The notes beneath the pieces are model-generated. The model made no database searches. It saw nothing but the letters and a program-made list of their open reading frames with translations, and was not told the origin of the DNA. DNA of 56,618 bases from the IMG/VR virus record IMGVR_UViG_3300023174_000199, positions 1-56,618 of that record. The stretch is one strand, 5' to 3'. Source of the stretch: a virus (lineage: Duplodnaviria; Caudoviricetes). Shown piece by piece: positions 3,299 to 11,675 of this stretch; position 1 is the first letter of the stretch, and each line of letters begins with the position of its first letter. A program made the position numbers and the translations under genes.

Positions 3299-3604
3299 AT
3301 GTTTATTGATAAACCGATGGGTACGTGGTATGAGACGGCTGATGAAACCGAACGTCAAGAATTTCGAGACTGGCTTCGTAGTGTACTTCGTATGCATGAT
3401 ACTACTATTCATTTTAAGAAAAAAGACGGTACTATTCGTGAAATGAAATGTACACTACAAGAAGGGAAAACTGTCTTGTATGAAAAGAAAACCGAGCGAG
3501 TAAAAACTGTTAGTGAAGAAACCTGTCCTGTATTTGATTTAGATAAACAGGAATGGAGATCATTTCGCTTTGATTCTGTAACGCAAATTAATTTCGATCT
3601 ATAA
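3299..3604 (+). CDS. SH3 beta-barrel / WYL_2-like phage protein
   Basis: FKKKDGTIREMKCTL...VFDLDKQEWRSFRFDSV signature. Confidence 0.8.
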   Translation: MFIDKPMGTWYETADETERQEFRDWLRSVLRMHDTTIHFKKKDGTIREMKCTLQEGKTVLYEKKTERVKTVSEETCPVFDLDKQEWRSFRFDSVTQINFDL

Positions 3605-3605
3605 T

Positions 3606-4685
3606 ATGGCAAGAGCACCAGTAGTAAATAACGAACCACGTCAAATTAACTTTGAGTCGGCTGATTACGTTTCCCAGCTAGGCCATGCTTTTAATTGGTA
3701 TAATCAAGAAAAAGAAAAGAAAGATGCTGTTAGTTATCTACGGGAATATGTAAAGACAAACGTAGGTGTTGATGGTGTAAAGCGCTTTGATAAAATACCT
3801 GATAATGAAATTACAATGACCTATGGTTGGGTAGCTCGTATTATTCATAACGGTTGCAATGTAGGTACAAAAGAACTAGAAAAGCTAGACAACTATGTTA
3901 AGGAACTACTGGTCAGAAAAGTAGAAGAGAAAGTTATTAAGGTTAAAGATACAACACCTAAACCTTCGGTGCAAGATTACATGCTGGAAAAAGTAGCCGA
4001 GTATATCGGTGAACTTGAAGGTGTGCTTGATGACTATATTGTAGATAAAAAAGACTTTGACTTATATAAAGACTTACAAGCAAGATCTATTCCTAAACCT
4101 TATTGCACGCACGTTGAGGCATGGGTAAAGAGAAAAGCTCAAGAATTTATTTACGTATATGAGTCTACCGACCCTCTTATTAAAGAGGCGTATTCTAATT
4201 TTACTAGACCGCAACTAACCAGGCTAATTAAATTATTCAGTCAGTGGGTTGAGGATATTGATCGCTATACTGAGTTTAAAAAGGCTAATCGTAAACCTCG
4301 CGTAAAGAAACAAGTAGCTCCTGGGATACAGGTTGCAAAGCTTAAGTACATGCGAGAGTTTACAGAACTAAATCTTAAGTCAGTAATGGCATCGGAGATA
4401 GTTGGTGCCTCTCAGGTATGGGTATATAATACTAAGTATAAACGATTGGCAGCTTACCGCACGGAATCAACCACCGGTTTGCAGGTCAAGGGTACTACTC
4501 TACAAAATTATGATCCTGATATGTGTGAGCAAAAAGCTTTACGCAAACCGGCAGAGATACTAAAGAAGGTACTTACTGCTGGTAAGGTTCAATTGCGTAG
4601 AATACTACCTGAACTTACAACAAAAGAGACTCCAGTTAATGGTAGAATTAATGAAGAGTGTATTATACTTCGGGTTATTAAATGA
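3606..4685 (+). CDS. Conserved hypothetical T4-like phage protein
   Basis: 359-aa ORF coupled to rnh. Confidence 0.7.
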   Translation: MARAPVVNNEPRQINFESADYVSQLGHAFNWYNQEKEKKDAVSYLREYVKTNVGVDGVKRFDKIPDNEITMTYGWVARIIHNGCNVGTKELEKLDNYVKELLVRKVEEKVIKVKDTTPKPSVQDYMLEKVAEYIGELEGVLDDYIVDKKDFDLYKDLQARSIPKPYCTHVEAWVKRKAQEFIYVYESTDPLIKEAYSNFTRPQLTRLIKLFSQWVEDIDRYTEFKKANRKPRVKKQVAPGIQVAKLKYMREFTELNLKSVMASEIVGASQVWVYNTKYKRLAAYRTESTTGLQVKGTTLQNYDPDMCEQKALRKPAEILKKVLTAGKVQLRRILPELTTKETPVNGRINEECIILRVIK

Positions 4686-5566
4686 TTGTTATTGATTATT
4701 CTCAGACTATTATCTCCAACCTAATGGTGGAGATTGGTGGTAGGAAAGACATTGAACTTGATGTTAACTTGCTACGTCATATGGTGCTTAATGCTATTCG
4801 AGCGCATAAGCAAAAGTTTGGACGTGAGTATGGTGAGATCGTTATTGCATGTGATAGCCGTAAGTACTGGCGCAAGGCTCAGTTTCCTTACTACAAAGCT
4901 AACCGTAAGAAGTCAAGAGAAGATTCCGGCTTTAACTGGCCTCATATCTTTGATACGATTAACTTACTCAAAGAAGAGCTGCGTACGGTATTTCCGTATA
5001 AGGTAATCGAGGTGGAGGGGGCTGAGGCAGATGATATTATTGCCACGCTCGTCTTCTGGTCTAACAGTAATGATAAAGTAGTTACAGGTCTCTTAGAGGA
5101 ACCGAAACCTCTTTTGATTATTTCTGGTGATCATGACTTCATGCAGTTACAAAAGTATAAGCATGTTAAGCAGTACTCTCCTGTACAAAAGAAATTCGTT
5201 AAACCTGATATGCCTCCTCACCAGTATTTAATGGAGCATATTGTTAAGGGTGATAAGGGTGACGGAGTACCTAATATTCTTTCAGCTGATGACTCCATTG
5301 TTGCTGGTGAACGTCAACGACCTATTACATCTAAGAAACTATTAGAGTTTGCAGAGAATGGTTTCATTGCTTGTAAGACAGAAGAAGAACGTCGTAACTT
5401 TCATCGTAATAAATTGATGGTGGATCTCGACATGATACCTTCTGAGGTTCAAGAAGCTATTATAAATAACTTCGTGACACAACCAGTTAAAGATAAGAGC
5501 CAGCTACTTAATTATTTTATTGAACATAAGATGAAGCAGATGATGGAACATTTGGAGGAATTTTAA
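4682..5566 (+). CDS. rnh: T4-type RNase H (5'-3' exonuclease)
   Basis: YKANRK, EADDIIA, SGDHDFMQL and GDKGDGVPNILS motifs of the FEN-like family. Confidence 0.95.
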   Translation: MIVIDYSQTIISNLMVEIGGRKDIELDVNLLRHMVLNAIRAHKQKFGREYGEIVIACDSRKYWRKAQFPYYKANRKKSREDSGFNWPHIFDTINLLKEELRTVFPYKVIEVEGAEADDIIATLVFWSNSNDKVVTGLLEEPKPLLIISGDHDFMQLQKYKHVKQYSPVQKKFVKPDMPPHQYLMEHIVKGDKGDGVPNILSADDSIVAGERQRPITSKKLLEFAENGFIACKTEEERRNFHRNKLMVDLDMIPSEVQEAIINNFVTQPVKDKSQLLNYFIEHKMKQMMEHLEEF

Positions 5567-6030
5567 TGCAATTACTAATTTCAGAAGTACTTGATGAGTT
5601 TGAAAAAGCTAAATCAAAACAAGATAAAATCGCTGTACTTAAAAAATACGAAACGCCCGTTCTACGAGGCATCATGCGAATTAATTTCGACCCTAACGTA
5701 GCGTTCGATCTACCAGAGGGTGAGCCCCCGTATCGTAAAGATACTGATCGCCCGATCGATTATCAGCAAACAACGCTGACGCTTGAATATAGACGCTTCT
5801 ATATCTGGCATGACCCTAATGTTAAGATTCCTAAACTTAAAAAAGAAACTCTCTTTATTGAAATGTTAGAAGGCCTGCATGCATCAGAGGCCGAAGTAAT
5901 TATTCTTGCTAAGGATAAAAACTTATCTAAAAAGTATAAGTCTCTAAAAGAAGACATTGTACGTGAGGCATACCCTGTAACGTTACCACCTAAGGTAGAT
6001 AAGGTGAAAGCTGCATCCCCTTTAGTTTAA
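5566..6030 (+). CDS. Conserved T4-like phage protein (recalled as DUF6433-like), with a possible -1 frameshift extension to 6149
   Basis: LPEGEPPY and FIEMLEGLH...EAE motifs. Ends in C CCT TTA GTT TAA. Confidence 0.75.
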   Translation: MQLLISEVLDEFEKAKSKQDKIAVLKKYETPVLRGIMRINFDPNVAFDLPEGEPPYRKDTDRPIDYQQTTLTLEYRRFYIWHDPNVKIPKLKKETLFIEMLEGLHASEAEVIILAKDKNLSKKYKSLKEDIVREAYPVTLPPKVDKVKAASPLV

Positions 6031-6149
6031 AATCTCTTTGGCAGCTTTTCACGAGGAAAAAACCTGAGTGGGAAGTAACTGGTACGGCGCCTAGTCTGGA
6101 GCGCTTCTACAATGTTAAAGAGATTAAAATGGATAGACGTAACCTTTGA
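6018..6149 (+). other. Candidate -1 ribosomal frameshift signal and 41-codon extension
   Basis: In-phase C_CCT_TTA, 6-nt spacer, 13-bp stem 6031-6043/6113-6125, -1 frame open to TGA 6147-6149. Confidence 0.55.
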
Positions 6150-6174
6150 TTTTTTTATTGTTCTATATTATAAT
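6146..6174 (+). promoter_or_regulatory. Sigma70-type promoter
   Basis: TTGATT-N17-TATAAT. Confidence 0.7.
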
Positions 6175-6179
6175 TGATT

Positions 6180-6536
6180 ATGATTTATACTAATACTAAA
6201 CCTCTTGTTAAACCTAAGCAGAAGCCTAAAGCCGAGCGCGAGCAGTACGCTGCGTGGTGTGCGAAGCATGGTATTGATCCTACCGGTAAGAATAGGAAGA
6301 GAAAAGACTTTAAGGTAATTACTCTACCTGGTGTCGTGTCGAAACCGTATGTTCGTGAGACTAAGCAGTATCCTAGCTTAGACTCTGGTAACTACGGGGC
6401 GGTTACTACTGGAAAAGCTAAGCAGGTATATACGGGGGATAAAATGCTAGGTATTGCTGCTATGCATAAGTCTAACTTAGTACCTATTTTTACTGAAGAA
6501 AACGCGAAAGAAGTATCGCAAATGAGGCGCGGATGA
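6180..6536 (+). CDS. Conserved basic hypothetical protein
   Basis: C-terminal YTGDKMLGIAAMHKSNLVPIF motif common in T4-like phages. ATG 6180 lies just after the -10 box. Confidence 0.7.
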   Translation: MIYTNTKPLVKPKQKPKAEREQYAAWCAKHGIDPTGKNRKRKDFKVITLPGVVSKPYVRETKQYPSLDSGNYGAVTTGKAKQVYTGDKMLGIAAMHKSNLVPIFTEENAKEVSQMRRG

Positions 6537-7375
6537 AAATTGCTCTTGGTTCAGACCTGCATATCGAGTTTGGTCAGCTCGAAGTTACAAATGCACATGG
6601 TGCAGATGTATTAATTTTATCTGGTGATATTGTTACTGCTACTGATTTAAAAGGTTACTCTGAAGGCGACTCATACGGTAATGCAAAACGTTTTATGACG
6701 TTCTTCGAACAATGTTCAACCAGCTTTAAGCATGTACTTTACGTGATGGGTAATCATGAACATTATCACGGTGACTTTGCAACGTCAGCTAATATACTTC
6801 GCACTGTTCTAAAAGAGTTTCCTAATATCCGTTTAATGGATAAGGAGAGTATTACAATCGAAGACGTTATATTCATTGGTGGTACCCTCTGGACTGATAT
6901 GAATAAAGAAGACCCACATACCCTTTATTCCATTAAAGGTGCTATGAATGACTTTAGAATTATTCAGAACAGTTCAAGAAAAGTAACCTTTAAAGATGAC
7001 GGAGGTAAGTTCCACGAAAGAGAAGCTCGCTTCTGCCCGGAAGATACAGTTGAAGATCATAAAGCTATGCTTGCCTTTATTGACGAATCTACAAAAGATA
7101 AGACCGATAAGTTTGTTGTTATTGGTCATCACTCGCCCTGTAAGATGTCAACCCACCCTCGATATAAAGAGGAGGTAATGATGAACGGGGCATACAGTAG
7201 TGACTTGTCTGAGTTTATTCTCGACCGTCCTCAGATTAAACTTTGGACGCACGGTCATACCCATGACCCTTATGACTACATGATTGGTTCTACTCGTATT
7301 GTTTGTAACCCACGTGGCTACATTAACTACGAAGAGATAGCTGATAATTTTGATTTTAAACTACTAGAGGTATAA
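6533..7375 (+). CDS. Calcineurin-like metallophosphoesterase
   Basis: SDLH, SGDI, GNHE and HGHTH motifs. Confidence 0.92.
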   Translation: MKIALGSDLHIEFGQLEVTNAHGADVLILSGDIVTATDLKGYSEGDSYGNAKRFMTFFEQCSTSFKHVLYVMGNHEHYHGDFATSANILRTVLKEFPNIRLMDKESITIEDVIFIGGTLWTDMNKEDPHTLYSIKGAMNDFRIIQNSSRKVTFKDDGGKFHEREARFCPEDTVEDHKAMLAFIDESTKDKTDKFVVIGHHSPCKMSTHPRYKEEVMMNGAYSSDLSEFILDRPQIKLWTHGHTHDPYDYMIGSTRIVCNPRGYINYEEIADNFDFKLLEV

Positions 7376-10800: not shown

Positions 10801-11385
10801 ATGGGTTCGCTTTCTAACTTTAATGATGCGTGTGTATCAATTAATGAAATTAAAACTAAATACGATTTAAATGTATTTGTAGAGACAGGTTGCTTTCAAG
10901 GCAACACGTTGAGGTATACGACAGGTTATAACTTTGAACGAATGTACAGTTGCGATATAGACAAGGAAATGATCGATAGGTGTAGTGATATTTCACCTAA
11001 CATAGAATTGTTTCTAGGTACATCGGTAGAATTTTTAGAACAATTACTACCTCGACTAACAGCTGATCGCATTTTATTTTTTCTTGATGCGCATTTACCC
11101 GAGCATGATAAGAACAGCGGTACGGTATTATTAGATTCAGAGCATAACTTTCCATTAAGGGAAGAAATTGAAATTATAAATAAATACCGTAAAGATAAGA
11201 ACGACGTTATCATTTGCGATGATTTACGCATATACGAAGACGGTCCGTTTGAAGGTGGTAATTGGGATAAACGTAAAAATTATAAAGACCTTGATTTAAA
11301 TTTCTTAAGCTTATATAATTATAAGGTAGAGAAGTTTTACAGTCATGAAGGCTATATCTTCTTAACAAAAGATATTGCTGTATGA
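10801..11385 (+). CDS. Class I SAM-dependent methyltransferase-like protein
   Basis: FVETGCFQG, FFLDAH and IICDD motifs. Confidence 0.7.
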   Translation: MGSLSNFNDACVSINEIKTKYDLNVFVETGCFQGNTLRYTTGYNFERMYSCDIDKEMIDRCSDISPNIELFLGTSVEFLEQLLPRLTADRILFFLDAHLPEHDKNSGTVLLDSEHNFPLREEIEIINKYRKDKNDVIICDDLRIYEDGPFEGGNWDKRKNYKDLDLNFLSLYNYKVEKFYSHEGYIFLTKDIAV

Positions 11386-11658
11386 AGCAAAGAGAAAAGT
11401 GTTCTGGACGCGGGTGCGAATCCCGCCAGGTCCACCAGATGTACTGGGTTCATTACCCTCAGCGCGAAGCCTAGAGCGACTAGGGTACATCTGATGGGCC
11501 TGATATAGATTCGACAGGGCAAAGAGTAACAGAGTGGACAGCACATCAGAGCAGATGTTAAAACTAAACAAAAGTAAACGCAAACGACTCAAAGTTCGCA
11601 TTAGCAGCCTAAACACTGCTTAGGGTTTCGTAGGTTTCCTCGTAACAGAATAACCTAC
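11374..11658 (+). ncRNA. ssrA: Circularly permuted (two-piece) tmRNA
   Basis: The acceptor piece comes first: T-arm GCGGG-TGCGAAT-CCCGC, then CAGGTCC-A-CCA ending at 11437. A 58-nt intervening segment follows. The coding piece starts GGGCCTG at 11496 (G3.U70 Ala identity) with ATTCGAC; the tag frame 11580-11612 reads ANDSKFALAA*. Outer ends approximate. Confidence 0.93.
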
Positions 11659-11675
11659 ACTTATAATGGAAAAAA

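Follow-up and report, generated by a model that had tools for sequence, protein, structure and literature searches.

A slippery heptamer and an open -1 frame at the end of a DUF6433 gene

The DNA analysed here, called the window, is the whole 56,618-nucleotide (nt) stretch of IMG/VR record IMGVR_UViG_3300023174_000199, a 56.6-kb fragment of an uncultured freshwater T4-like phage (CheckV completeness 35%; GC 40%) that encodes gp32-, gp59- and gp33-like as well as baseplate genes. Within it lies rnh (4682-5566, + strand), coding for a T4-type RNase H / 5'-3' exonuclease of 294 amino acids (aa; PF02739, E 1.2e-15; PF09293, E 4.9e-13), followed on the same strand by a gene of the DUF6433 / phrog_461 family (5566-6030; PF20025, E 6.8e-33; phrog_461, E 9e-44). 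The 3' end of this second gene is probably the site of a programmed -1 ribosomal frameshift. All features described in this section are on the + strand.

Read directly, the zero frame of the DUF6433 open reading frame (ORF) begins at ATG 5566 and closes with TCC CCT TTA GTT TAA, the stop codon occupying 6028-6030; its 154-aa product would be the short isoform. Three nucleotides before this stop lies the proposed shift site, the slippery heptamer C_CCT_TTA (6018-6024), placed in the X_XXY_YYZ register in which both tRNAs can re-pair in the -1 frame. A Shine-Dalgarno (SD)-like stretch, TAAGGTGA (6000-6007; anti-SD duplex -4.6 kcal/mol), is located 10 nt upstream of the heptamer as a candidate 5' stimulator. 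On the other side, a 6-nt spacer (6025-6030) leads to a 13-bp outer stem, 6031-6043 paired with 6113-6125, which includes two G-U pairs (6040/6116 and 6041/6115), closes a three-way junction and is a candidate 3' stimulator (6031-6125). The -1 frame is open over 6003-6146, and from the heptamer it contributes 41 codons (6024-6146) and a TGA (6147-6149), the conserved tail of the predicted long isoform. With 152 zero-frame residues and 41 from the -1 frame, that isoform would be 193 aa long.

The heptamer, its spacer, the stem with its multibranch closure, products of 154 and ~194 aa and a -1 frame ending at the next -35 box had all been put forward in a first-pass annotation of this DNA. Direct reading bears out the heptamer and spacer, and the stem coincides with the outer helix of the minimum-free-energy fold. 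The -1 frame TGA does overlap the -35 hexamer of a sigma-70-like promoter, TTGATT-17-TATAAT (6146-6174; 10 of 12 matches, 17-nt spacer), with which the unit ends, the next gene starting at ATG 6180. The short product stands at 154 aa; the long one had been placed one residue too high.

A single in-frame heptamer is within chance expectation, at about one per 256 codons, and the weight of the case for frameshifting consequently lies in its conservation among relatives. This conservation also bears on the suspicion that a frameshift mutation or an assembly error split an in-frame C-terminal domain, leaving a pseudogene or an artefact. The site does contain short homopolymers (CCCC, TTT and AAAA), and some sequencing platforms tend to err at these. 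Three DNA runs, each from a different study, nevertheless gave contigs that cross 6015-6035 without insertion or deletion, which excludes sequence errors. The same arrangement is present in those contigs, in relatives L001 and L002 and in dozens of divergent contigs, and an in-frame version was found neither among the best 120 of 500 homologues nor among matches to a profile of the tail. We regard a mutational or assembly origin as scarcely credible.

Heptamer, stop and -1 frame in relatives

Relatives were gathered from IMG/VR (32 loci) and from JGI and ENA metagenomes (80 loci), each DUF6433 match being extended to its stop before the other frames were read. Left out were 30 loci of marine cyanophage type, which fell below 50% identity, and L037, in which the locus does not include the stop. 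The window and the remaining loci make 82 gene ends, among which the -1 sequence takes 74 distinct forms. An in-frame slippery heptamer together with a -1 ORF of at least 100 nt was present at 68 of the 82 ends (39 C_CCT_TTR, 29 A-run), with the proviso that the sequences are related and the counts do not represent independent events. C_CCT_TTA or C_CCT_TTG occurred at 39 of the 82, exactly 9 nt before the stop in all except one. A_AAA_AAG or A_AAA_AAA occurred at 27, located 27-36 nt before the stop, the A-run class having runs of 6-8 A. Two further ends, L056 and L105, which the script had labelled 'other', were re-read as A7 sites at -30 and -60, since only then does the product include the start of the conserved tail. 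No heptamer was found at six ends, which carry instead a TAATG stop/start overlap and an ATG-initiated ORF of 44-48 aa for the same peptide. Among the 80 ends with at least 200 nt of downstream sequence, the -1 frame remained open for at least 100 nt past the stop in 74; the same holds for the +1 frame in 2 and for the read-through frame in 13.

A second scan of IMG/VR recovered C_CCT_TTR relatives at 72% (L116), 65%, 55%, 54% and 47% identity, L116 lying in a complete 163-kb genome with terminal repeats; another IMG/VR locus, L118, is the same contig as L033. At 45-53% identity there are remoter IMG/VR relatives whose only A_AAA_AAG lies 48-102 nt ahead of the stop, right where the conserved tail begins, and there the tail starts with K-K followed by a Trp/Phe-rich helix. 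In a quick maximum-likelihood tree, the C_CCT_TTR and A-run sequences formed two supported clades (Shimodaira-Hasegawa-like approximate likelihood ratio test, SH-aLRT, 96 and 100). The TAATG group was nested inside the A-run clade and is on this ground derived. One locus, L090, combines a DUF6433 body that groups in the A-run clade with a 3' end, heptamer and tail of the C_CCT_TTA type, the result of recombination in the slip region or else of chimeric assembly.

The TAATG group raises the question of whether the -1 ORF is translated separately, by termination-reinitiation or from a non-canonical start, yielding a peptide of ~40 aa and no fusion. One subclade does so by its sequence (the six loci above, to which L108, cut by the locus end, may be added), ATGA is found at the equivalent place in L043, and gene callers predict small ORFs here. 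As an account of the window this is very improbable, the -1 frame containing no ATG, GTG or TTG from 6003 to 6128, that is, none before 6129. Canonical starts are absent from the -1 frame in 21 of 39 C_CCT_TTR and 22 of 27 A-run relatives as well (43/66 together), and the GTG of some relatives alternates with synonymous GTA. The TAATG clade, being derived, does not speak for separate translation as the original state, and separate translation leaves unexplained why the heptamer is fixed at synonymous positions and why the -1 frame opens right there.

Constraint on the heptamer

The upstream limit of the -1 frame lies close to the heptamer in several relatives. In L081 and L084 a -1-frame TGA directly precedes CCC TTT, so that the frame opens 10 nt before the zero-frame stop; in L097, L098 and L002 its opening lies one codon further upstream. 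Among the A-run relatives, several open this frame a single codon ahead of the run, 31 nt before the zero-frame stop. A frame that opens just before the heptamer bounds the shift to the heptamer itself.

Codon choice points the same way. Seven amino acids (S, A, D, G, I, V and P) are encoded by the codon that precedes the heptamer, yet this codon is NNC in all 37 distinct C_CCT_TTR sequences, against 12% third-position C elsewhere in DUF6433 genes. The proline codon is CCT in 37/37 (background 43%) and the leucine codon TTR in 37/37 (background 44%), and in-frame CCCTTTR was counted 41 times in gene tails versus once in gene bodies. Judged from these sequences, the heptamer is fixed at the nucleotide level, beyond what the encoded amino acids require. 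According to the available part of Sharma et al. 2014 (PMC4066793), C_CC.U_UU.A and C_CC.U_UU.G belong to 18 heptamers that are under-represented in E. coli genes. The same 18 are given there as shifting at >0.10% without stimulators, a figure for E. coli, whose tRNAs may not be those of the phage's host.

Candidate stimulatory elements

SD-like sites were defined as anti-SD duplexes of -4 kcal/mol or stronger ending 3-12 nt before the heptamer. Of the distinct sequences, 83% (n=35) and 67% (n=21) have one, as against 15-16% of background blocks from the same genes, an in silico enrichment to which the Lys/Glu-rich composition of the linker may contribute.

The window's 6018-6150 segment folds at -35.5 kcal/mol with a z of only -2.1, 5 of 200 shuffles being as good. 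In L002, A6043G is accompanied by the compensatory T6113C, and T6116C converts a G-U into a G-C pair, changes that keep or strengthen the window's stem. In window 6033-6143, a minor strain contig of run X1 differs at 6063 (C>T), 6067 (A>G), 6098 (G>A) and 6113 (T>C); with 6043 unaltered, the last of these breaks the terminal stem pair.

Across relatives, the 24 nt after the heptamer pair with sequence further downstream at a mean of -20.4 kcal/mol, with z < -2 relative to shuffled partners in 30 of 36 distinct sequences. RNAalifold on 22 sequences recovered the stem with 95.4% of cells paired and 7 pairs changed on both sides; none of 500 shuffles was as good, and slid controls paired 31-58% of cells. 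The stem starts 0-6 nt downstream of the heptamer, and its 3' arm falls on different codons in different subclades, a pattern that favours selection for having a stem directly behind the site over selection for a single, fixed RNA element. Of 20 A-run sequences, 16 have a hairpin beginning 3-9 nt beyond the heptamer; because this hairpin hardly varies, covariation is weak (2 pairs), and the fold reaches z < -2 in 6 of 20.

Compensatory changes in the stem, and a 5' arm that covers the zero-frame stop in many relatives, could also be expected of an independent RNA element serving stability, processing or regulation of the downstream gene, with the open -1 frame an untranslated by-product. Such an element would be undescribed: an Rfam scan of 5800-6400 (E up to 10) returned chance-level matches, the best at 15.9 bits versus a gathering threshold of 47. 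It would not account for the excess of open -1 over open +1 frames, for a peptide kept despite differing nucleotides, slip sites and stems across clades, or for a 3' arm that moves while the peptide stays, and we consider it extremely improbable. The first-pass annotation had named a stem conserved without the heptamer and the -1 ORF as the mark of such an element. This is not the pattern that the relatives show; heptamer, -1 ORF and stem are conserved together, and the covariation analysis that it had suggested supports the stem.

The long form might also arise by transcriptional slippage, RNA polymerase adding a base, and this is conceivable at the runs of 6-8 A of the A-run relatives. In the window, as in 38 relatives, there are only the runs CCCC and TTT, too short for transcriptional slippage as it is known. 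The X_XXY_YYZ phasing is a ribosomal signal, as are the SD-like element and a stem at 0-6 nt. Slippage during transcription is very improbable.

The tail as a protein

Tails of all classes could be aligned, sharing an invariant Trp and the core W-x5-[LI]P-x-[DE]P-x-[FY][DN]-x-[RK]. Third codon positions are the most variable in the tail. The ratio of nonsynonymous to synonymous polymorphism (pN/pS) in its singly coding part was 0.46 in the window's clade (36 distinct sequences), 0.57 in a second set (23) and 0.21 in a third (5), the values of 0.46-0.57 being only moderately low. As far as these alignments can tell, the -1 frame is conserved as a protein, across different slip sites.

An in-frame fused form of ~195 aa was not found, the best 120 of 500 homologues measuring 143-169 aa. 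When 1.84 billion representative proteins were searched with a profile of the tail, 13 matches of 29-93 aa came back, all of them small ORF calls at this type of locus, and none of the 13 joined the tail to another domain. Two tail peptides had no match in 50,697 phage records (tblastn, E up to 1), and no cultured phage with the tail was found; for one tail peptide, the best ESM Atlas score of 0.79 was below the useful range.

Modelled alone with AlphaFold2 (AF2), the tail has a helix at residues 2-12 followed by coil (predicted local distance difference test, pLDDT, 69; predicted template modelling score, pTM, 0.21), the layout one would look for in a docking tail. The first-pass annotation had noticed an amphipathic-looking segment at the start of the extension and had named KKPEWEVTGTAPSLER as a tail peptide; the segment does fall in the predicted helix, which is the most conserved start of the tail. 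That the tail might be left over from ligase motif I (K-x-D-G) was considered and dropped, since the spacing in K-W-S-D-x-G does not match.

Homologues from marine cyanophages (34-43% identity) have no tail, and the next -1 ORFs are unrelated genes. Marine loci L011-L024 and L003-L010 have in-frame aromatic ends, for example FGW[DN]E[HY]F.. or ..EWG.R., which may be the constitutive counterpart of the hydrophobic helix delivered by frameshifting.

Fold of the 154-aa protein and a possible clamp link

The AF2 model of the 154-aa protein (pLDDT 81) was aligned with VIA-align to the DNA-binding domain (DBD) of T4 ligase (5wfy) at Z 13.3 and a root-mean-square deviation of 3.5 A, over 129 of 132 residues. 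All of the top 12 matches were ATP-dependent ligases, the next match having a Z of 3.3; Foldseek ranked the same ligases first, with E no better than 5.8e-3. A DUF6433 profile gave 0 matches in PDB sequences at E up to 10. As modelled, the DUF6433 protein matches an orphan DNA-ligase DNA-binding-domain fold. At 154 aa, or 193 with the tail, it has the DBD-like fold only and neither nucleotidyltransferase (NTase) nor OB domains, and it is on this account not a ligase. PF01068 and PF01653 were absent from three tail-bearing relatives (G001-G003) that are 94-100% complete, and no adenylation domain of an ATP- or NAD-dependent ligase could be recognised in these. A remoter DUF6433-bearing phage, G005, has an ORF for a 465-aa ATP-dependent ligase (L194).

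Near-complete relatives encode a gp45-like clamp. In T4, as described in the available part of Shi et al. 2018 (PMC6212786), the gp43 end ...SLDFLFG and the ligase loop LDFLF bind gp45 via an amphipathic helix. The helix of the window's tail reads S-L-W-Q-L-F, and the pattern h-x-x-[LWFIM]-[WFY], written after the sequences had been seen, was present in 58 of 62 distinct tails compared with 8.3 of 62 shuffled ones. By analogy, the first helix of the tail could tentatively be seen as a docking motif for the phage's gp45-type sliding clamp. The proposal of the first-pass annotation that the helix could relocalise the long form would be compatible with such a putative clamp tether.

Gene neighbourhood

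Upstream, rnh was found in 57/57 tail-bearing relatives with at least 600 nt of upstream sequence. In the window (5555-5570), its stop codon shares a TAATG with the start of DUF6433, and GGAGG comes directly before; ATG-overlapping junctions, mostly TAATG, were seen at most of the 12 gene ends listed. Rnh, the DBD-like gene and the tail, the latter by frameshift or by coupling, would form one translationally linked unit.

The frameshift unit is followed by a 118-aa gene (6180-6536, +; phrog_27048) whose function is not known. Of the 65 heptamer- or TAATG-bearing relatives with at least 500 nt of downstream sequence, 64 keep it in synteny, and it may be functionally linked to the unit. Two genes upstream of rnh, a small ORF (3299-3601, +) encodes a WYL_2 domain (Sm-like SH3 barrel; E 3.9e-15). 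The window also carries a transfer-messenger RNA (tmRNA) at 11331-11666 (+), matched by Rfam beta_tmRNA (RF01850) with 110.7 bits versus a gathering threshold of 84 (E 7e-33) and also by the permuted-tmRNA model; ARAGORN reports a permuted tmRNA with the tag ANDSKFALAA. This phage-borne tmRNA hints at a betaproteobacterial host. Window positions 5400-6600 had no blastn match among deposited phages.

Comparison with known systems

In its layout the candidate site resembles that of E. coli dnaX, where tau and gamma arise through a three-part signal and the shifted ribosome soon terminates, giving a shorter protein. Both combine an X_XXY_YYZ heptamer with an SD-like element ~10 nt before it and a stem that follows within a few nt; 29 DUF6433 relatives use an A_AAA_AAG-type slip site, and in both cases a replication-associated gene has two isoforms (predicted ones for DUF6433) that differ at the C-terminus. 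They differ in outcome, the dnaX shift stopping almost at once whereas the DUF6433 shift would append 40-50 aa of conserved tail. The slip site of the window is C_CCU_UUA, and the DUF6433 family, with its ligase-DBD fold, is unrelated to dnaX.

In T7 gene 10A/10B, similarly, a -1 shift a few codons before the stop appends a tail of ~50 aa to a minority of molecules. That protein is structural, and the 10B tail is not known as a docking motif.

The tail assembly chaperones G/GT of lambda and many other tailed phages likewise shift to -1 near the end of a short ORF to produce a C-terminally extended minor isoform, conserved across phages with varying slip sequences. Separate genes replace the shift in some lineages (Vladimirov et al. 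2022, as cited in the accessible part of PMC10885494). G/GT is a morphogenesis gene with a domain extension of ~140 aa, whereas DUF6433 belongs to the replication module and its tail is short and mostly disordered.

T4 DNA ligase shares with the DUF6433 protein the DBD fold (Z 13.3), and the gp43 motif S-L-D-F-L-F resembles the amphipathic tail helix S-L-W-x-L-F. Unlike T4 ligase, the DUF6433 protein is without NTase and OB domains, and no similarity at the sequence level was found (the PDB profile search above). The clamp motif of T4 ligase lies in an NTase loop, whereas the DUF6433 tail motif follows the DBD and its clamp binding is putative.

Proposed mechanism and significance

Taken together, we assign a probability of roughly 0.8 to a programmed -1 ribosomal frameshift, with dnaX-like signals, at the 3' end of the DUF6433 gene. 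The majority of ribosomes would stop at TAA 6028 and release the 154-aa protein of ligase-DBD fold. A fraction would slip one base back on C_CCT_TTA, the P-site Pro-tRNA moving from CCU to CCC and the A-site Leu-tRNA from UUA to UUU, a slip that would be favoured by the SD-like stretch ~10 nt upstream and the stem 6 nt downstream. Slipped ribosomes would read the -1 frame to TGA 6147 and produce the 193-aa isoform with its conserved 41-residue tail. On the more tentative clamp reading, frameshifting would set the ratio of free to clamp-tethered nick-binding protein for lagging-strand maturation beside RNase H.

Several points weigh against this reading. The occurrence and rate of the slip are what we infer from sequence, and a metatranscriptome contig spans 5792-5995 only, ending before the site and uninformative there. 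Eight of the 82 gene ends are without a long -1 ORF, including L108, cut by the locus end, and L034 and L036, where the heptamer is kept before a 25-codon ORF; the IMG/VR relatives L117, L123/L124 and L155 also lack one. By these sequences the tail is dispensable in some lineages. C_CC.U_UU.A/G are outside the motifs named 'most efficient' in the available part of PMC4066793, and their shiftiness is known from E. coli. To these are added the relatedness of the sequences counted, the modest fold z of the window, the near-invariant A-run hairpin, the moderately low pN/pS and, for the clamp link, the post hoc definition of the helix pattern.

The mechanism itself, bacterial-type -1 frameshifting, is known; what is new is the family of genes, the turnover of slip sites and the connection with an orphan ligase domain. 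A literature search on 'DUF6433' returned no paper, and in the accessible parts of work on frameshifting in T4-like and uncultivated phages, including PMC10885494, PMC5009743 and bioRxiv 10.1101/2025.10.02.679949, a DUF6433 frameshift is not mentioned. If true, recoding would take place in the replication module of T4-like phages, a group in which gene 60 bypassing was the only recoding case found (PMC5009743, available in part). The long isoform would have been missed by gene callers, all 120 best homologues of 500 being annotated at the short length given above.

The family would also offer a natural experiment in slip-site turnover, in which a single conserved peptide is reached by way of C_CCU_UUR, A_AAA_AAR or TAATG coupling, and the position of the 3' stem arm changes from subclade to subclade. 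For DUF6433 / phrog_461, a family found in hundreds of genomes of cyanophages and freshwater phages, the model gives a structural assignment, that of an orphan ligase DNA-binding domain, and with it a testable link to the sliding clamp. A further, doubtful extension is that the frameshift acts as a stoichiometry switch for lagging-strand repair in T4-like phages whose own ligase has been lost. The short form would be a free nick-binder, while the long form would carry the clamp helix and a second motif, the W-x5 core of the tail, by which a catalytic partner, for example the host NAD-dependent ligase, is recruited to gp45-loaded nicks by RNase H. If true, that switch would amount to a ligase assembled in trans from phage and host parts.
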